The notes under the pieces are model-generated. The model was not told the origin of the DNA and ran no database searches. It saw only the letters and a program-made list of their open reading frames with translations. Shown piece by piece: positions 10,652 to 33,475 of a stretch of 44,241 bases of DNA; the first letter of the stretch is position 1; each line of letters starts with the position of its first letter. The stretch covers positions 1 through 44,241 of the forward strand of contig JAISHN010000095.1 of the NCBI GenBank assembly GCA_031262635.1, given 5' to 3'. Both the position numbers and the translations under genes were made by a program. This DNA is from Holosporaceae bacterium. Lineage in GTDB: Bacteria; Pseudomonadota; Alphaproteobacteria; UBA3830.

Positions 10652-10698
10652 GATTCTTCTGTGTTCGTTATTTTTTGGGGAGCTAGCCCGAAGTCCAA

Positions 10699-10765
10699 CG
10701 AAGGATCCAAGCGATTTTCAGACTTCTTCGCCGTATGGATCCTTTGCTTTGTTCTGAGATGACGA
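10699..10765. repeat. REP-A palindromic element, partial copy at the left border of the GC-rich island
   Basis: cgaaggatccaagcg...cgtatggatcctttgc...ctgagatgacgag matches the central and right-arm parts of the full copies at 22356 and 29064. Confidence 0.6.
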
Positions 10766-11065
10766 GAGAGAGTCGTCTTTCAGCGATGTTGGACGCGCGC
10801 GACAGCGGATCAAAGTCCGGGAAGCGCTCAATTCGAGGCGGCCGGCAGCGACCAAATCCGCTGCTTCACGCCTATTTCCGAGGGAATCGACGAGCCTATG
10901 AAGATTCTCGAAAACGAAGACAAAGCCGATAAGAGGATCTTCAACATAGGCAACCCAGACAATATGATAAGTGTCAAGGAGCTGGCGTTCAAGCTGTCAG
11001 AGGAAGCGAAGAAGGACCCTACCAGGAGCGAGATGGCTGATAGGGCGCGGACAGGGCGTTTCAAG
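10763..11065 (+). pseudogene. Remnant of an SDR-type NAD-dependent epimerase/dehydratase (ArnA C-terminal domain / UDP-glucuronate decarboxylase-like)
   Basis: The frame of ORF 10898..11236, extended upstream to the in-frame TGA at 10760, reads ...AAGSDQIRCFTPISEGIDEPMKILENEDKADKRIFNIGNPDNMISVKELAFKLSEEAKKDP... This parallels the ArnA segment [23 protein letters not shown]...[23 protein letters not shown] (recalled from memory). Only about 75 residues of a protein over 300 aa remain. There is no Rossmann N-terminus and no proper start. Confidence 0.6.
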
Positions 11066-21136: not shown

Positions 21137-21211
21137 TGGAGCGGGCGAAGGGACTCGAACCCTCGACTTCAACCTTGGCAAGGTTGCGCTCTACCACTGA
21201 GCTACGCCCGC
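21137..21211 (-). tRNA. tRNA-Gly (anticodon GCC), CCA encoded
   Basis: The minus strand reads GCGGGCG-TA-GCTCAGTGGTAGAGC-G-CAACC-TTGCCAA-GGTTG-AAGTC-GAGGG-TTCGAGT-CCCTT-CGCCCGC-TCCA. This gives a perfect 7 bp acceptor stem and a canonical D loop and T loop. Confidence 0.93.
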
Positions 21212-21298: not shown

Positions 21299-22090
21299 TC
21301 AGTTTACAATTCCAACTCCGCGTCCCCAGAGGACGTAGGCTTCTCCTCGTTGTTGAGTCCTACCTCTTATAGTATTGCTTCCTCCAGCGAACAGCATTTT
21401 TATAAACGAACTAGAAAAAACGTAGTTGCAGACAACAGTTAAGACAAATGTGACTCCAGAGGGAACTTTTTCATTGTTCCTAATCTTACCTTTATGAATA
21501 GCGCGGGTGCCTTCGCTCTTAAAGGTCTTGCTTCCATCTGAATCTATAAAATCAAAGGTATCAACAGGATCTACGATTCCAGTATGGTCGGCTAAGTACG
21601 CATATGTTTCAGCGTTTTCATGATATCCAATACTTTCTCCGCCGAATGGAGATTTGGAACACATGTTCTCTAGGCTACTATATACTCTAAGCCAATATCC
21701 AAGGTTTTGTTTTTGTATAAATGAAGGTATGTGTTTCTTGACTATTTTATCAATACTCGTATCTCCGTCCGCAATTCTTCCTTTTGCGATGAAATAAAAC
21801 GTAGCTTCTGCGGCAATAGTGTCGATTGCGGTTTGCGTTATATGGATTTTCATCAATTCGAACGTGAAAAATATTAAGTAACTGATTATCGGCAGAGTAA
21901 GAGCGGTTTCGATCAAAATTACGCCGCGTATGCGGGCGTCGCTTCCGCCGTTTATATTTTTCGTCTTCCTTGATCGCTCCTTTTCGTTATCCTTCGAGAG
22001 CAAGCGCGCTTGGCGATGACAAACAAGCCTAATCCAGTCAAAAATTAAAAGAAAACTCTTTGATTTACAATGAGATTCCCCCCCCCACAT
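21299..22090 (-). CDS. TadE-like pseudopilin/pilus-assembly domain protein, paralogue 1 (start uncertain, poly-G at the 5' end)
   Basis: RIRG|VILIETALTLPIISYLIFFTFELMKI resembles the TadE N-terminal domain with a G/xxxxE prepilin-peptidase-like site. The only in-frame ATG (22090) sits directly on the G9 tract and has no SD. Confidence 0.6.
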   Translation of the reverse strand: MWGGESHCKSKSFLLIFDWIRLVCHRQARLLSKDNEKERSRKTKNINGGSDARIRGVILIETALTLPIISYLIFFTFELMKIHITQTAIDTIAAEATFYFIAKGRIADGDTSIDKIVKKHIPSFIQKQNLGYWLRVYSSLENMCSKSPFGGESIGYHENAETYAYLADHTGIVDPVDTFDFIDSDGSKTFKSEGTRAIHKGKIRNNEKVPSGVTFVLTVVCNYVFSSSFIKMLFAGGSNTIRGRTQQRGEAYVLWGRGVGIVN

Positions 22091-22248
22091 TTGTCTTGCA
22101 GGCGCTAACGGACGACAATCTAACGACGGCGGTTTTGATCAATTTATAATAACGAAACATAACTGCCCTCGCGATAAACCTATCGGCATCGTTAAATAAA
22201 AACGGTTAAAAAAGAGTTAAAAAAACGCATATCGTAACTTAGGGGCGA
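22063..22248. repeat. Duplicated 5' module of the TadE-like genes, copy 1 (SD + ATG at 22160 + 24 codons + G9)
   Basis: Aligns along its full length with 29268-29455. By my alignment there are about five substitutions plus the tract difference (C9+AC versus C13 on the plus strand). Confidence 0.85.
22078..22086 (-). repeat. Homopolymeric tract G9 (C9 on the plus strand)
   Basis: Counted directly: ...gagattCCCCCCCCCacatttg... Confidence 0.9.
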
Positions 22249-22355
22249 TATTCGCATTTACAGACTTGGACGGGCTAACCTCGCTCGCTACAAAAAAACG
22301 AGCGCTACGCATAATGCAAAAGGAACAGGGTCTGCCTGCCCTTACGCCACTTTTT

Positions 22356-22452
22356 CGTCATCCTAGAGCGAAGCGAAGGATCCAAGCGGCGAAGACGCGG
22401 GAGAATCGTATGGATCCTTCGTCGGACTGCGTCCTCCTCAAGGGTGACGGAG
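22356..22452. repeat. REP-A palindromic element, full copy
   Basis: cgtcatcctagagcgaagcgaaggatcc-(loop)-atggatccttcgtcggactgcgtcctcctcaagggtgacggag. Long imperfect hairpin. Generates the spurious ORF 22266..22481. Confidence 0.8.
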
Positions 22453-22581: not shown

Positions 22582-23508
22582 TTAACCGGCGATTTTGCCG
22601 ACCAAATCTTTTCGGCCTCTGATGAAATCTTCGCCGGACATTTTGTTTTTTCCCGACGGCTGTACGAGAGTTAGTCTCAGCGATCCGACGCCGCAGGCGA
22701 CCGTCATTTTTTCGCCGATGAAGCCCGAACGTTCGCGCGAGTCTTCGTCGGCTATTTTAGCGTCGATGATTTTTACTCGCAGCCCGTTGATTTCCGTCCA
22801 AGCCGCCGGAGCGGGAGAAAACGCTTTAATCTGTCTTAGAACGTCTTGAGCGGAATTGTTCCAGTTTATTTTATACGACTCTTTTGAAATTTTTGTAACG
22901 TAAACGGCGCCTTCCTCCGGCTGCTTGCGGGCGTTGGACAGAGCGTCGTCAAGATTGTTCAGAGTCTCGACGATCATTGTCGCTCCTAAATCGCCGAGTC
23001 GCTCCGAAAGCTCGCCATATGTCGTTTCAGGGCAAATATCGACTAGTTTCATAGAAATAATATCGCCCGTGTCGATTCCTTCGTCCATTTTCATAATGGT
23101 AATTCCGGTTTTTTTATCTCCGGCTAAAATAGCCGCCTGAATTGGAGCCGCTCCACGCCATCTCGGCAACGCCGAAGCGTGAACGTTTATAAAACCGCGC
23201 GACGGAATGTCGAGCATAATACGCCGGATTATCAATCCGTAAGAAACTACGACGACTACGTCTGGTTTCAGCGAGCGAAACTCTTCTATGTTTTTCGCCA
23301 ATTTAAAAGTATTAGGACAATAAACCGGAAGGCCTTTGTCTTCCGCGAACTTATGAACGACCGATTTTTGGATTTTATACTTTCGTCCCGACCGTTTTGG
23401 CGGCTTAGTATAAACTCCGACGATATTGAACCCCGCTTCGTATAAAGCGACTAAGGATTTCAGCGAAAAATCTGAATTCCCCATGAATACGACGGAATTA
23501 TCCTTCAT
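22582..23508 (-). CDS. fmt: methionyl-tRNA formyltransferase
   Basis: VVFMGNSDFS, NVHASALPRWRGAAPIQ (SLLP-type motif), C-terminal OB-like domain, 308 aa. Confidence 0.93.
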   Translation of the reverse strand: MKDNSVVFMGNSDFSLKSLVALYEAGFNIVGVYTKPPKRSGRKYKIQKSVVHKFAEDKGLPVYCPNTFKLAKNIEEFRSLKPDVVVVVSYGLIIRRIMLDIPSRGFINVHASALPRWRGAAPIQAAILAGDKKTGITIMKMDEGIDTGDIISMKLVDICPETTYGELSERLGDLGATMIVETLNNLDDALSNARKQPEEGAVYVTKISKESYKINWNNSAQDVLRQIKAFSPAPAAWTEINGLRVKIIDAKIADEDSRERSGFIGEKMTVACGVGSLRLTLVQPSGKNKMSGEDFIRGRKDLVGKIAG

Positions 23509-24409
23509 TTATATGCCTAGCCAAAAGAATGCGGAAAATTTTGCGCAAATTCTCTTTCGAGAAACGTCCTATCGCTCGCAAAATCGCCTCTCGCTCGTCT
23601 TTCGTCAATCGTTTGCCAAGACTCCGCGATAGTCGAACGTCTTCTTTCCCCAATTCCAGAATTTTATTAAGAATAACGACTCCTCCGGCGACGAAAATAA
23701 AGTCCGCGTTCTCTTTAAGATAACGTTTGCCCAAATCTTCTTTCAGATTATTGAGGAAACATTCGAAGAGCTTTATTTTTTTCTCTTTTTTACCAAGAGC
23801 CTTATCGAAATATATCGCTAAGATTTCTTTGCGTTGAGATTCGCCTACATTTTGATGATCTATAAAGTTTTTTCCGTTCAGATGACAAATTTCATGCTGC
23901 GCGGCGAAAGCGTCGAAACCTGTTAGCCTAACCGTTTTGATTTTGAAATCGAGATCGCGATATTTTACGATGATTTCCAAACTTCTCGATGTTAGCGCCA
24001 ATACGTCCGGCAGCGACGCGCAAGCGTCTATCTCCGTAGAAAGCGCGTCTGATTTTTCCACAATCTCAGGATTTATCATGGCTAGCGTGGAAACTTTTCC
24101 GCCTTTAAGTCCGAATTGTACGACGATTATTCGTTTTAACTTTCCAATCTGCGGAGCGGCTAGAGCCGCTAAATGAGCGCTCGGATCTTTTACCCAAGCT
24201 TCAAGAACAGCCGCGATTTCTCGCGCTTCCGGCAGTTCGCTTTCCAATACGTCGGAGCATTCTTTGGACAGTATTGGATCGGGATCGGAAACCATCTCGA
24301 CTATCGGCGTTCTCGCCTCTTCCTTTTTAGACTCGCATTTAGCGGCGAAACATCCGATCGTTAGGAGCAAAACGCAAATTTTTTTAATTAAACCCGCTCT
24401 TTTTTTCAT
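23498..24409 (-). CDS. divergent peptide deformylase paralogue with a signal/lipoprotein-like N-terminus and a C-terminal extension of about 110 aa
   Basis: ALAAPQIG (motif 1), IDACASLP (motif 2, Cys kept) and QHEICHLNG (HExxH kept). N-terminus MKKRAGLIKKICVLLLTIGC. Sits between def and fmt with overlaps at both ends. Confidence 0.65.
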   Translation of the reverse strand: MKKRAGLIKKICVLLLTIGCFAAKCESKKEEARTPIVEMVSDPDPILSKECSDVLESELPEAREIAAVLEAWVKDPSAHLAALAAPQIGKLKRIIVVQFGLKGGKVSTLAMINPEIVEKSDALSTEIDACASLPDVLALTSRSLEIIVKYRDLDFKIKTVRLTGFDAFAAQHEICHLNGKNFIDHQNVGESQRKEILAIYFDKALGKKEKKIKLFECFLNNLKEDLGKRYLKENADFIFVAGGVVILNKILELGKEDVRLSRSLGKRLTKDEREAILRAIGRFSKENLRKIFRILLARHINEG

Positions 24410-24896
24410 TTTCTTGCGCCTTCAAAAATTTTTTCATAAATCGCGATTTTTTTAGTTTACTCAAATGATCGATATACAAAATCCCGTCAAGATGGTCGAT
24501 CTCATGTTGCAAACAAAACGATAAATACCCCTCCGCGCGTATCTCTTGTTCTTTAAAATCTTCGTCCAAATATGTCGCGACGACAGATTCATGACGAGCG
24601 ACAGTTTCTCTTAAAAGAGGAAACGACAAACATCCTTCTTTTGAGTCGACGCATTCTTCAGATCGCCAAATTATCTTTGGATTAATCAATTTATACAGCC
24701 GCGACGGTTCGTCTCGAACATCTATGACCGCGATTCTCTTTGAAACGCCGACCTGAGGCCCCGCCAATCCCGCTCCGTTCCACTCGTATAATTTTTGCGA
24801 CATTTCATCGAGGATCTTTCCGATTTTTGGATCTCCAATTTCAACCTCTTCGCATTTTTTAAATAAAATTGGATCAGGATATCTTATAAGTTCCAT
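24384..24896 (-). CDS. def: peptide deformylase
   Basis: GAGLAGPQVG, EGCLSFP and QHEIDHLDG canonical motifs, 170 aa. Confidence 0.93.
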   Translation of the reverse strand: MELIRYPDPILFKKCEEVEIGDPKIGKILDEMSQKLYEWNGAGLAGPQVGVSKRIAVIDVRDEPSRLYKLINPKIIWRSEECVDSKEGCLSFPLLRETVARHESVVATYLDEDFKEQEIRAEGYLSFCLQHEIDHLDGILYIDHLSKLKKSRFMKKFLKAQENEKKSGFN

Positions 24897-25368
24897 TTCA
24901 ATTGCTTATTCTTAACTACGCGGACACTTTAACGCATTTTGTCTCTTAATTCCATGCGTCGGTTTCGTAGGGCGAATAAATTATTGCTCCTTTTTTAGAT
25001 AGATAGCAGCTATACATTTTGTGGCTATTTATTCTAAATTTTAGCCGCTAACTCCTGTTAATTCAGGCTTTTTAATCCATTATTCGGGTTCCAAAATAAC
25101 TCTCGTCTATCTCTACTCTTCCGAAAAACTTTTCGCTCCTTTCCTTTTGTTTCTTCGCAATTTTCTCTCGCAGCTTGTGAAAATATTTTACGGCGGAGTT
25201 CCTCAGCTCCGCTGATCTTCGATTCAGGTTCCGCAGCAAATATGTTCGCCATTTCTAAATTTTTTTTGTAGAGGACGCTCAAAAATACCAAAGCAACTTT
25301 TCTAATCTTCCTTGAACCGGAAAAGATAATTGGATAAGTTTTCTAATTGCGAGATAAATGGAAAAGAT

Positions 25369-26499
25369 ATGAGAATAGGAAGTTATAAAAAACACAAAAC
25401 GCGCGACGAAGAATATTCGTCTTATATCCCTCCGAAACTTCCCGTCGACTTGCGGCTTGAGCCTCTTTACGAACTTATGGAGCGAGCGACTCATAGTCTG
25501 TCAAAACTAGACGGCGCTGCCGAAACGATTCCGAGCGTAAATCTATTTTTGTATATGTACGTTCGAAAAGAAGCGGTTTTATCGTCTCAAATAGAGGGAA
25601 CTCAAAGCTCGTTGAGCGATTTAATATTGTTTGAAAACGATCGAAAGCCGAACGTAGAAATATCCGACGTTAAGGAAGTCTCGCGTTACGTCGACGCTCT
25701 CGATCATGGAATTAATCGACTAAGAAGCGGTTTTCCATTATGTTTGCGGCTGATAAAAGAAACTCACGAGATATTGTTGCGCGATACTCGAGGAAAAGAA
25801 TGTTTGCCGGGCGAGTTTCGCTCGTCGCAAAATTGGATCGGCGGAACGCGTCCGGGAAACGCGGCTTTCGTCCCTCCAGAGCCTGAAATTTTGCCCGATT
25901 ATTTAGACAATCTTGAATTGTATATTCATTCGGAAGGTTCGCCTATATTGATAAAAGCCGCGATCGCTCATTTGCAATTCGAAACGATTCATCCGTTTTT
26001 AGACGGCAACGGACGTATTGGAAGACTGTTGATAATACTGATCTTATGCGACTTTGGATTGTTAAAAAGTCCGCTTTTATATTTAAGCCTTTATTTCAAA
26101 GAAAACAGACGCGTTTATTATTCGCTGATGAACGAAGTTAGAGAAAAGGGGAATTGGGAAGACTGGATACGTTTTTTCTTAAAAGGGGTAATCGAGGTTT
26201 CGGATCAGGCGGTTTCTATAATTTCTCAGATAACGGCGTTATTCGAGGTTTGCGAAGCGAAAATCGCGGAAACGGGACGGCGAAGATTTTCCGCGCGAGC
26301 GGTGTTCGAGTATTTAAAAACGGCTCCTTTCGCTACGGCGACGAGCGTTGCTAACAAATTGAAAATTTCCGTTCCGACGGCTAGATCGGCGTTAAACGCG
26401 CTGGTTGAATTGCAAATCATAGAAGCGGAAGAAGCGGATCAAAGAAGCAAATATTATAAATTTCAAAAATATGTAAATATATTAGACGCGGTCAGATGA
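25369..26499 (+). CDS. Fic family protein (Fic_N + Fido + C-terminal wHTH), class II with an intramolecular inhibitory motif
   Basis: HPFLDGNGRIGRLL (HPFx[D/E]GNGR). N-terminal VLSSQIEGT fits the (S/T)xxxE(G/N) inhibitory helix. The ATG at 25369 is preferred over the TTG at 25330. Confidence 0.85.
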   Translation: MRIGSYKKHKTRDEEYSSYIPPKLPVDLRLEPLYELMERATHSLSKLDGAAETIPSVNLFLYMYVRKEAVLSSQIEGTQSSLSDLILFENDRKPNVEISDVKEVSRYVDALDHGINRLRSGFPLCLRLIKETHEILLRDTRGKECLPGEFRSSQNWIGGTRPGNAAFVPPEPEILPDYLDNLELYIHSEGSPILIKAAIAHLQFETIHPFLDGNGRIGRLLIILILCDFGLLKSPLLYLSLYFKENRRVYYSLMNEVREKGNWEDWIRFFLKGVIEVSDQAVSIISQITALFEVCEAKIAETGRRRFSARAVFEYLKTAPFATATSVANKLKISVPTARSALNALVELQIIEAEEADQRSKYYKFQKYVNILDAVR

Positions 26500-28242: not shown

Positions 28243-29367
28243 TCAAGACGCCGGCGGCGGGGTTTCGCTGAAGAGGCCAGGTTTAGGGGTAAAAATGACG
28301 ACTGTGTTGAAGTAAGCGGTATCTACGTTGGATGCGGAAGTTTGACGACCGGAAGAAAGCGGCAACATCCAAAATCCAAACGCTCGATTAGAGGCGACCT
28401 TACTGCACGACGATCCGTCGCCAAATTTATACTGAGGACTATAAATTAAAATAACTTCCACAATAATTTTTACCTGCCCGGGTTTAATAGACAAAGTCGG
28501 ATAAATTTTCGAAGGAACAACATATTGCCCGTTACTTACGGTAGGTCGTTCTCCGCTCATTGATGAACCTGAATAAAGGCTAGAAGGAGTGTTCATAACA
28601 GTTTGGTGATTCCAAGATGATATTCGGAACGGCCATAGCAAGCTGGCAGTTCCGTCGTCATTGCCTCTTACATAATATATCATCAGCTCTGGAAAATGCC
28701 CGAGCGGATGACACCATTTTTGCGAATGAAATAGACCGTTAGACGGATAGAGACTCAAAAACGCCGCACTATATATGTGTTTCAAGTGAGCGACAGTTAT
28801 CGGTTGGCCGCGCGGAGCGTTTTGAAGCATGTTAATAACCTCATGCGCGACGAATTTCATCTTCGCCTGTATCTGATAATACTTTGGGATGTCATGCATG
28901 GCGACGAGGCACATTATCAATATCGGAACGCAGATCGCGAATTCTATCAAGACCGAGCCTCGGGAGTTTACGCGATCGAAGCGATTTCTTCTGTCGCGGG
29001 AAGACGGAGCTGCGCTATAGAAACTGCGCTCGTTTTCTTCATCGCCTTCGCCGTTTCTTCTTCCGTCATCCTTGAGCGAAGCGAAGGATCCAGACGGCGA
29101 TGACGCATGAAAATCGCATGGATCCTTCGTCGGACTTCGTCCTCCTCCAGGATGACGCGCTCCCTCTTCCATTGCGGAAAAGGATCGGCGCGAGAAGGAT
29201 AACGCCGCTACAGAAGCGGAGTCAGATTTTGTATTATTGCAGGCAAGATGATAAGAAAAATCGCTTAATTTACAATGAGATTCCCCCCCCCCCCCATTTG
29301 TCTTGCAGGCGCTAACGGACGACAATCTAACGACGGCGGTTTTGATCAATTTATAATATCGAAACAT
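28243..29367 (-). CDS. TadE-like pseudopilin/pilus-assembly domain protein, paralogue 2 (leader in frame through G13; REP-A inserted in the leader)
   Basis: GAGG sits 6 nt upstream of the ATG at 29367. The ORF reads MFRYYKLIKTAVVRLSSVSACKTNGGGGESHCK..., then SRG|SVLIEFAICVPILIMCLVAM (TadE-like with a G/xxxxEF site at about residue 137). Confidence 0.65.
   Translation of the reverse strand: MFRYYKLIKTAVVRLSSVSACKTNGGGGESHCKLSDFSYHLACNNTKSDSASVAALSFSRRSFSAMEEGARHPGGGRSPTKDPCDFHASSPSGSFASLKDDGRRNGEGDEENERSFYSAAPSSRDRRNRFDRVNSRGSVLIEFAICVPILIMCLVAMHDIPKYYQIQAKMKFVAHEVINMLQNAPRGQPITVAHLKHIYSAAFLSLYPSNGLFHSQKWCHPLGHFPELMIYYVRGNDDGTASLLWPFRISSWNHQTVMNTPSSLYSGSSMSGERPTVSNGQYVVPSKIYPTLSIKPGQVKIIVEVILIYSPQYKFGDGSSCSKVASNRAFGFWMLPLSSGRQTSASNVDTAYFNTVVIFTPKPGLFSETPPPAS
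29064..29157. repeat. REP-A palindromic element, full copy inside TadE-like paralogue 2 (in frame)
   Basis: cgtcatccttgagcgaagcgaaggatcc...atggatccttcgtcggacttcgtcctcctccaggatgacg. Translated on the minus strand as ...RHPGGGRSPTKDPCDFHASSPSGSFASLKDDG... Confidence 0.8.
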
Positions 29368-29455
29368 AACTGCCCTCGCGATAAACTTATCGGTATCGTT
29401 AAATAAAAACGGTTAAAAAAGAGTTAAGAAAACGCATATCGTAAATTAGGGGCGA
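29268..29455. repeat. Duplicated 5' module of the TadE-like genes, copy 2 (SD + ATG at 29367 + 24 codons + G13)
   Basis: See the copy at 22063-22248. Confidence 0.85.
29283..29295 (-). repeat. Homopolymeric tract G13 (C13 on the plus strand)
   Basis: Counted directly: ...gagattCCCCCCCCCCCCCatttg. Consistent with NGGGGE in the track translation. Confidence 0.9.
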
Positions 29456-29643
29456 ATGATTATTCGCCCTTACGCCTTCCTTCCGTCATTCTGAGCGTAG
29501 CGAAGAATCCATATGATGAATAAGCCTAAAAATCGTTTGGATCCTTCGGCCGCAAGCGGCCTCTAGGATGACGGAGAAATAGAACTTTCCGTCCATTATT
29601 CTCTATTAAAAAAACCGTAAGGGCGAATAATCATTCGCCCTTT
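29448..29643. repeat. Nested palindrome: 25 bp perfect inverted repeats, each itself a hairpin, flanking a REP-A copy (29484-29576)
   Basis: gggcgaatgattattcgcccttacg (29450-29474) is the exact reverse complement of cgtaagggcgaataatcattcgccc (29617-29640). On the minus strand the distal hairpin is followed by ttacgg and then seven T, so it may also terminate rplKA. Confidence 0.75.
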
Positions 29644-33372: not shown

Positions 33373-33443
33373 TTAGAATAGCGACCTTTTTCATCGTAGA
33401 TCATACGGCAACCTCGTTTTTGTTTTTCTCTCTTCCGAACTGC

Positions 33444-33475
33444 ATGGATCCTTCGCTCCGCTCAGGATGACGGAG
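33444..33475. repeat. REP-A palindromic element, right half only
   Basis: atggatccttcgctccgctcaggatgacggag. Confidence 0.6.

Follow-up and report, generated by a model that had tools for sequence, protein, structure and literature searches.

Why should the gene for a pilin-like protein carry, between its start codon and its body, a run of nine guanines that puts the two out of frame? This question is raised by a TadE-like gene on the minus strand of a contig of a Holosporaceae bacterium, of which 44,241 nucleotides (the window) were analyzed. The original prediction for this locus described a poly-G tract that uncouples the gene from a leader with its own Shine-Dalgarno (SD) sequence and ATG, pointed out a second locus with the same leader, and proposed a homopolymer-controlled translational switch in its OFF state. 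Our results support this proposal in the form of slipped-strand translational phase variation within a cleavable leader, with the gene in question (copy 1) OFF and the second one (copy 2) ON, a reading to which we assign a probability of about 0.7. The evidence that carries it consists of a sister cassette with 13 guanines in the same window, a set of 57 classifiable cassettes, intact bodies behind out-of-frame tracts, and G8 and G9 alleles at orthologous loci of relatives.

Two leader cassettes in the window

The anatomy first described for copy 1 was confirmed (coordinates of all features are collected in Table 1). Behind the SD sequence, the leader opens with an ATG at 22160, runs through 24 codons (MFRYYKLIKTAVVRLSSVSACKTN) and enters the tract G-T-G9, past which its frame reads ...VGGGISL and closes at a TAA (22067-22065), giving a product of 31 amino acids. 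The body of 263 codons lies out of this frame; it contains a single ATG, at 22090, which overlaps the tract at its 5' edge and is not preceded by an SD sequence. Either the loss of one G or the gain of two would join leader and body in one frame. Apart from this frame break the body is intact and carries no further lesion.

The 186-bp module is indeed shared with the second locus at 29268-29455. The leader of copy 2 is the same as that of copy 1, the flanks are identical over 63 nt on the 5' side and 15 nt on the 3' side of the tract, and a BLASTN alignment of the two cassettes (22041-22261 against 29245-29473) gave 90% identity; the tracts themselves differ. Judged by its reading frame, copy 2 with its G13 is the predicted ON counterpart of copy 1 within the same window, a point not made in the original prediction.

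The two cassette tracts are the only G/C homopolymers of at least 7 nucleotides in the window, the next longest being a single C6. An estimate from base composition gives about 0.1 runs of at least 9 by chance, and a 28-nt cassette probe matched twice in the window against an expectation of 0. GGG accounts for 11% of the glycine codons in the housekeeping open reading frames (ORFs) of the window, and GGG-GGG-GGG occurs nowhere else in them; the G-run is therefore under selection as DNA and not as a glycine motif. A plain conserved glycine motif was considered as an explanation of the run and rejected, as most copies are out of frame and the codon is rare.

The position of the translation start bears on a further explanation, according to which the bodies begin 3' of the tract, copy 1 at a TTG and copy 2 at M66, so that leader and G-run would form a separate upstream ORF or be non-coding. 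Gene callers did choose such downstream starts: P0044, the call for copy 1, begins at a TTG within the TadE motif, and P0001, that for copy 2, begins at M66. The genes related to the copy 1 body come with their own short leaders. However, the TTG start deletes the G/xxxxE cleavage site of the product, and between the tract and the G/VILIE motif of copy 1 there is no ATG, no GTG and no start preceded by an SD sequence. M66 lacks an SD sequence as well and is not conserved: L068, an orthologue with 85% identity, carries AGG in place of the ATG, and its frame is open upstream to the contig end. A cassette from the same Joint Genome Institute (JGI) sample, L069, is in frame with a tract of G11-A-G (13 positions), and in-frame alleles are annotated as leader-fused proteins (P0057, P0079, P0083). 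Across the cassette family described below, linkers of 8-285 codons separate tract and motif, and in every case the open frame is precisely the one that the tract is able to join. The tract-independent start that the original prediction had named as a possible refutation was looked for in the sequences of both copies, and we regard it as very improbable. Both full window ORFs remained without an exact match in protein look-ups because gene callers had picked other starts.

The cassette family in related symbionts

When species-representative genomes were searched with a profile, 67 loci were obtained from about 15 metagenome-assembled genomes (MAGs) of Holosporaceae or Alphaproteobacteria from termite guts and rumens, and single MAGs hold a dozen or more cassette copies. 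The 57 classifiable cassettes share one layout, with an SD sequence, an ATG, a short leader and a tract of G8-G14, followed by an intact ORF with the G/xxxxE prepilin motif. These loci and the window together amount to 412 kb and contain about 66 G/C runs of at least 8; about 58 of them fall on the sense strand in the leader cassette, where they stand after the SD sequence, the ATG and 10-24 leader codons and before the intact prepilin-motif ORF. The cassette of the rumen clade reads GGAG-N6-ATGAAATGGTTTGCCAAAAAGGTATTTGAC-G(8-10)-TAAGGACCTAAAAAATCA, and that of the termite-gut clade ATGTTGTCTAAAATTATGAC.GTAATGCAAC-G(8-13)-CAGGCTCTTAGAAG. The in-frame product of the latter, MLPKIMTVMQRGGGQALRRARIG/AIFIE, places the tract within a prepilin leader of 23 residues; since this tract-bearing leader ends directly in G/AIFIE, no downstream start could yield a processable prepilin in the termite-gut clade.

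Some linkers between tract and prepilin motif are very long, reaching 215-285 codons in L013, L028 (UBA3830), P0026 and P0009. The long rumen linkers are built of repeats such as ...TEKNTGSSVTLVNEKLRFA.YDR.GG.G..., all open in the body frame.

The original prediction had suggested a comparison of tract lengths in related strains, and such a comparison revealed G8 and G9 alleles at two orthologous rumen loci. The orthologous pairs were traced through protein clusters at 90% identity whose members differ at the N-terminus alone, and they come from independent rumen assemblies. At the first locus, L071 carries G8 in the predicted ON state, annotated as a leader-fused protein of 290 amino acids, whereas L072 and L073 carry G9 and are predicted to be OFF; the sequences are 99.4% identical over 3.6 kb and have the same neighbours. 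At the second, L074 (G8, ON) and L075 and L076 (G9, OFF) align over 1333 bp with 0 mismatches and 1 gap, which is the tract. Such alleles are, in these relatives, the comparative signature expected of a hypermutable repeat. Tandem cassettes with near-identical flanks likewise carry unequal tracts (G12/G13/G12 in L043, G10/G9 in L018 and G11/G12 in L058). No other strain of the window locus was available for comparison, because exact-pattern DNA scans of public genome and metagenome contig collections found no further copy of the window cassette. A metagenome scan with the rumen leader returned the known UBA3830 contigs and one identical pair, and nothing more.

Only 6 of the 57 classifiable cassettes are in frame and hence in the predicted ON state. 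In 37 the body lies in the +1 frame, with one G too many, and in the remaining 14 it lies in the +2 frame and needs one G more. The unbiased genome set contains about 49 cassettes, of which about 2 are in frame where 1/3 would be expected (P ~7.5e-7). This skew is what one would see if the '+1' arrangement were the normal state, recoded at the level of expression through RNA-polymerase slippage that shortens the transcript by one G or through a +1 frameshift on GGG, with the tract serving as an attenuator for a low, constitutive output in place of a switch. The '+1' state predominates in both the rumen and the termite-gut clade, far above one third, and is also that of copy 1. The modal tract length is sharply conserved, at G9 in rumen and G12 in termite-gut MAGs. 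Moreover, a TAA or TAG always stands immediately past the G9 in the leader frame of the rumen clade, which resembles the arrangement of prfB, where +1 shifting is stimulated by a stop codon. In the termite-gut clade and in the window, however, the stop lies 11-13 nt past the tract and none follows it directly, which argues against a common frameshift stimulator. States 2 and 0 are also found with intact bodies, and the G8 and G9 alleles at orthologous loci indicate that the DNA tract itself is unstable. We therefore consider recoding unlikely as the explanation of the tract, although slippage during expression and phase variation of the DNA are not mutually exclusive and could coexist.

In untruncated copies the body frame past the tract is open for 133-516 codons; in each of the two remaining frames a stop is mostly reached within 0-2 codons. 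The pairwise ratio of nonsynonymous to synonymous substitution rates (dN/dS) of bodies behind out-of-frame tracts has a median of 0.20, with values of 0.21, 0.16 and 0.09 for the three least diverged pairs. These ratios indicate that the bodies are under purifying selection and not decaying. They also bear on the suspicion that copy 1 is a pseudogene, established or in the making, or that its G9 call is an assembly or sequencing error. Homopolymers are error-prone, the G-to-T interruption in the tract of copy 1 is typical of decaying repeats, copy 1 joins the cassette to a family that normally lacks it, and L070 (see below) provides an example of a decayed cassette. Yet all 263 codons of the copy 1 body are intact, and dozens of loci from independent assemblies show the same out-of-frame arrangement with a body dN/dS of about 0.2. 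An error would have to have struck over 50 loci, mostly with a shift of the same sign. On balance, neither decay nor error is a probable explanation of copy 1.

Slipped-strand phase variation would operate as follows. The 186-bp module would be a portable expression cassette common to prepilin-type (TadE/TadF-like) genes in Holosporaceae. Transcription would start from a promoter with a CtrA-type box (TTAAC-N6-TTAAC) about 60 nt 5' of the start codon. To judge from the sequence, the ribosome would load at GAGGG, start at the leader ATG, read 24 codons and then translate the G-run as glycine. With 13 positions in the tract, as in copy 2, reading would pass through the linker into the G/xxxxE(F/T) motif and the body (ON). 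With the 11 positions of copy 1 (GT+G9), it would end at the TAA 13 nt past the tract (OFF), and the body would not be made because the ribosome stops there and the body has no SD-preceded start of its own. The tract would lie within the pre-sequence that a prepilin peptidase of the TadV type would cut off, as suggested by the processing of Flp, TadE and TadF by TadV, and in-frame changes of tract length would cost the mature protein nothing since this pre-sequence is removed. Changes of the tract would arise by slipped-strand mispairing at replication, a process reflected in the alleles of the relatives and presumed to act in the window as well. As most copies are one G too long, few members of the family would be expressed at once.

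Several observations weigh against this reading. The instability of the G9 tract in the window is extrapolated from relatives and from the sister cassette, the T interruption cuts the pure run of copy 1 from 11 to 9, and the tract lengths in the set derive from short-read metagenome assemblies. The excess of the '+1' OFF state is also predicted by constitutive slippage at the level of expression. The ATG at 22090 is in frame with the body of copy 1 and lies about 20 nt 5' of the leader stop, so that weak termination-reinitiation could make the OFF state leaky. Neither window protein reaches the Pfam gathering score for PF07811 or PF16964 (for TadE, copy 2 stays at 20.7 bits where 22.9 are required, and copy 1 gives no match), and no tad machinery, prepilin peptidase or ctrA gene lies within the window. 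In L070 (1770-1870), from a close relative in JGI sample 3300042599, G11 is followed by ATAACATTG and not by AATCTCATTG, and all three frames close within a few codons past the tract; this cassette looks decayed or decoupled.

Two further poly-G runs in the relatives depart from the cassette layout. In L035 (1921-1929), from a rumen relative, a G9 tract stands straight after the ATG (AAAATGGGGGGGGGACATATG), 5' of a 291-codon ORF without a prepilin motif, and may mark a second kind of poly-G-controlled gene. The G17 followed by C10 near a contig end of a termite-gut MAG (L049, 67-93) is not a cassette and is probably an assembly artefact.

Bodies, promoter element and genomic setting

The original prediction took copy 1 for one of two TadE-like paralogues, which did not hold up, as the window bodies belong to different families. 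The family of copy 2 has the invariant C-terminus VVIFTPKPGLF-ETPP, and copy 1 belongs to another, ending YLLWGRGVGIVN. Paralogy of the bodies was accordingly rejected; what they have in common is the cassette, the short cassette-encoded stretch GGESHCK behind the tract, and an N-terminal TadE-like prepilin segment of about 40 residues, G/xxLIE(F/T)A...P followed by a hydrophobic helix. The prepilin-peptidase motif G/XXXXE(F/Y) with its hydrophobic helix is present in both, as G/SVLIEFAICVPILIM and G/VILIETALTLPIISYLIFF, and by its residues the shared N-terminal segment is a predicted Tad-type prepilin motif. Among 32 family members, Pfam TadE was matched at E<=0.01 in 22 and TadF in 8, and P0054, a relative of copy 1, has a precomputed PF07811 assignment. 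An AlphaFold model of copy 2 (pLDDT 81) consists of a disordered pre-sequence, an N-terminal helix of 50 residues and a beta-sheet domain. A Foldseek search of this model against the PDB returned nothing at E<=1e-3, in a library from which a TadE/TadF structure is possibly absent.

Poly-G is absent from the genes related to the copy 1 body (L084, L085), whose leaders are short and of the ordinary kind (for instance MPSKIVKKSRQG/AALIETAF) and which do have a CtrA-like box upstream; one of these relatives comes from the same JGI sample as L068-L070. Copy 1 is thus a chimera, and in this genome the cassette has become attached to a second family of TadE-like genes. Such grafting explains why the window genes are alike in their 5' modules and unlike in their bodies.

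TTAA-N7-TTAAC is the CtrA consensus of Caulobacter. The window holds 3 exact matches to it, of which 2 lie in the cassettes, each 60 nt 5' of the leader ATG. Of 53 cassettes, 45 have a match of at least 8/9 to the box 59-68 nt 5' of their leader ATG, compared with 1.3% of control positions. A scan with the sigma-70 consensus found no sense-strand promoter in the cassettes. From these matches we infer that transcription of the cassettes is CtrA-dependent. Rfam detected no RNA family in the cassettes, its sole match being a tRNA-Gly gene downstream of copy 1, about 90 nt 3' of the stop of this gene, with no obvious tie to the glycine-coding tract.

The neighbours in the window are fmt, two def genes, a Ham1-family gene, purA, tRNA-Gly, Fic, an amino-acid permease and rplA/rplK, and the family members of the relatives likewise stand in scattered gene contexts. 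The two peptide deformylase genes form a tandem that lies upstream of fmt and shares its strand; one product is 303 amino acids long, with the deformylase domain confined to residues 38-187. Between the two cassette genes lies a gene for a Fic/DOC-domain protein with a C-terminal winged helix. The window also contains palindromic repeats like repetitive extragenic palindromic (REP) and Rickettsia palindromic (RPE) elements, with the core GAAGGATCC...GGATCCTTCGCTTCGCTCAAGGATGACG. One copy, on the minus strand, stands in frame in the linker of copy 2, where it is translated as ...RHPGGGRSPTKDPCDFHASSPSGSFASLKDDG..., and upstream of copy 1 the element lies in non-coding sequence. In this it resembles the palindromic elements of Rickettsia, which insert into genes.

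Table 1. Cassette components and other features located in the window (positions numbered along the window; ON and OFF are predicted states)
Feature	Gene	Position	Strand	Remarks
Cassette core	copy 1	22063..22248	-	similarity detectable 22041-22261
CtrA-type box TTAACTCTTTTTTAAC (TTAA-N7-TTAAC)	copy 1	22205..22220	-	start 60 nt 5' of leader ATG
SD sequence GAGGG	copy 1	22166..22170	-	5 nt spacing to ATG 22160
Leader ORF, present OFF state	copy 1	22065..22160	-	MFRYYKLIKTAVVRLSSVSACKTNVGGGISL followed by TAA
Tract G-T-G9	copy 1	22078..22088	-	pure G9 at 22078-22086; 11 positions against 13 in copy 2
Body ORF, 263 codons	copy 1	21299..22090	-	+1 frame relative to leader; TadE-like; C-terminus YLLWGRGVGIVN
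Prepilin-type motif G/VILIETALTLP	copy 1	21890..21925	-	G56 of body ORF
Cassette core	copy 2	29268..29455	-	similarity detectable 29245-29473
CtrA-type box	copy 2	29412..29427	-	start 60 nt 5' of ATG 29367
SD sequence	copy 2	29377-29373	-	leader ATG at 29367
Tract G13	copy 2	29283..29295	-	in frame, ON
ORF, 374 codons	copy 2	28243..29367	-	leader, GGGG, 107-codon linker, TadE/TadF-like body ending VVIFTPKPGLFSETPP
Motif G/SVLIEFAICVP	copy 2	starts 28959	-	
Third exact CtrA-type box		43699-43714	+	about 90 nt upstream of 117-codon ORF 43804-44157
tRNA-Gly(GCC)		21137-21211	-	
Peptide deformylase genes		23498-24409, 24384-24896	-	
Fic/DOC-domain protein		25330-26499	+	
REP/RPE-like repeats		22357-22449, 29061-29157, 29466-29574, 10689-10776, 33442-33472, 44098-44117		29061-29157 (-) within copy 2 linker

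Comparison with known systems

The closest parallels are found in Neisseria. In N. gonorrhoeae and N. meningitidis, pilC1 and pilC2 reportedly carry a poly-G tract in the region coding for the signal peptide. As in pilC, the G-run of the window cassettes stands between the start codon and a mature pilus-associated protein, the frame would decide between ON and OFF, paralogous copies occur in different states, and the tract lies in a removable N-terminal pre-sequence. Unlike the pilC adhesins, the proteins here are TadE/TadF-like, are encoded in a dozen or more copies per relative genome and belong to an obligate symbiont lineage, and the switching is a prediction from sequence.

The opa multigene family of Neisseria carries CTCTT repeats in the leader-peptide region. 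It has in common with the present family a conserved 5' leader with a slippage-prone repeat, of which most copies are out of frame and a stochastic few are, or here would be, expressed. It differs in that the opa repeat is a pentamer, the products are outer-membrane adhesins and there is no CtrA-type promoter, whereas here the repeat is a homopolymer and the products are prepilin-like. A more far-reaching interpretation, which we offer tentatively and think rather unlikely to hold in full, is an opa-like 'one-of-many' lottery in Holosporaceae symbionts of protists: a CtrA-driven poly-G cassette, transferable to further TadE-like genes as copy 1 illustrates, would leave more than 90% of a family of at least a dozen prepilin-type surface proteins silent yet ready for expression, and the bias towards one G too many might mean programmed slippage of transcript or ribosome and thus a graded control that is not purely binary.

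Campylobacter jejuni is said to have poly-G contingency genes. Its tracts resemble those described here in their length of G8-G11 with a mode of G9, in their place in the 5' coding region, and, as regards the rumen relatives, in G8 and G9 alleles that distinguish populations. They differ in that they lie in unrelated surface-modification genes and are not part of a single portable leader cassette. With respect to the promoter, the pilA and cpa (Tad) genes of Caulobacter are reportedly under the control of CtrA, and they share with the cassettes the arrangement of alphaproteobacterial Tad-type genes behind TTAA-N7-TTAAC boxes. The Caulobacter genes have no homopolymer switch, and binding of CtrA to the window cassettes is predicted from the motif.

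Contingency loci are best known from pathogens exposed to adaptive immunity, for which they are a textbook tool. If confirmed, the present system would mean that obligate symbionts of ciliates, flagellates and amoebae stochastically diversify a large repertoire of pilus-type surface proteins, which would bear on infection, adhesion and host switching among hosts without an antibody response. In practical terms, automatic annotation mis-starts or truncates nearly all members of the family, and a tract-aware re-annotation would recover them.

The original prediction had assigned the DNA to a Rickettsiales-like symbiont and had remarked that such switching is not known to be an established trait of that group. 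The order has to be corrected, since the FtsH protein encoded in the window shares 75-79% identity with proteins of Holosporaceae bacterium MAGs, which places it in a Holosporaceae-like lineage (Holosporales) and not in the Rickettsiales. The remark also needs qualifying, since Anaplasma marginale is known to contain about 20 poly-G tracts of at least 9, often near gene 5' ends, for which slipped-strand regulation has been suggested (PMC7041399). Like the bacterium of the window, A. marginale is an obligate intracellular alphaproteobacterium with poly-G near the 5' ends of genes; it differs in belonging to the Rickettsiales, in that its tracts are mostly intergenic and tied to aaap rearrangements, and in having neither a cassette of SD sequence, ATG and leader nor a pilin-like family (PMC7041399). 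Literature searches that combined Holosporales with phase variation, homopolymers or Flp pili gave no relevant result, and a 2025 review of the Holosporales makes no mention of pili, Tad, phase variation, homopolymers or CtrA. The proposed mechanism is in itself an ordinary one; what is new is the lineage in which it would occur, its scale and the portability of the cassette.

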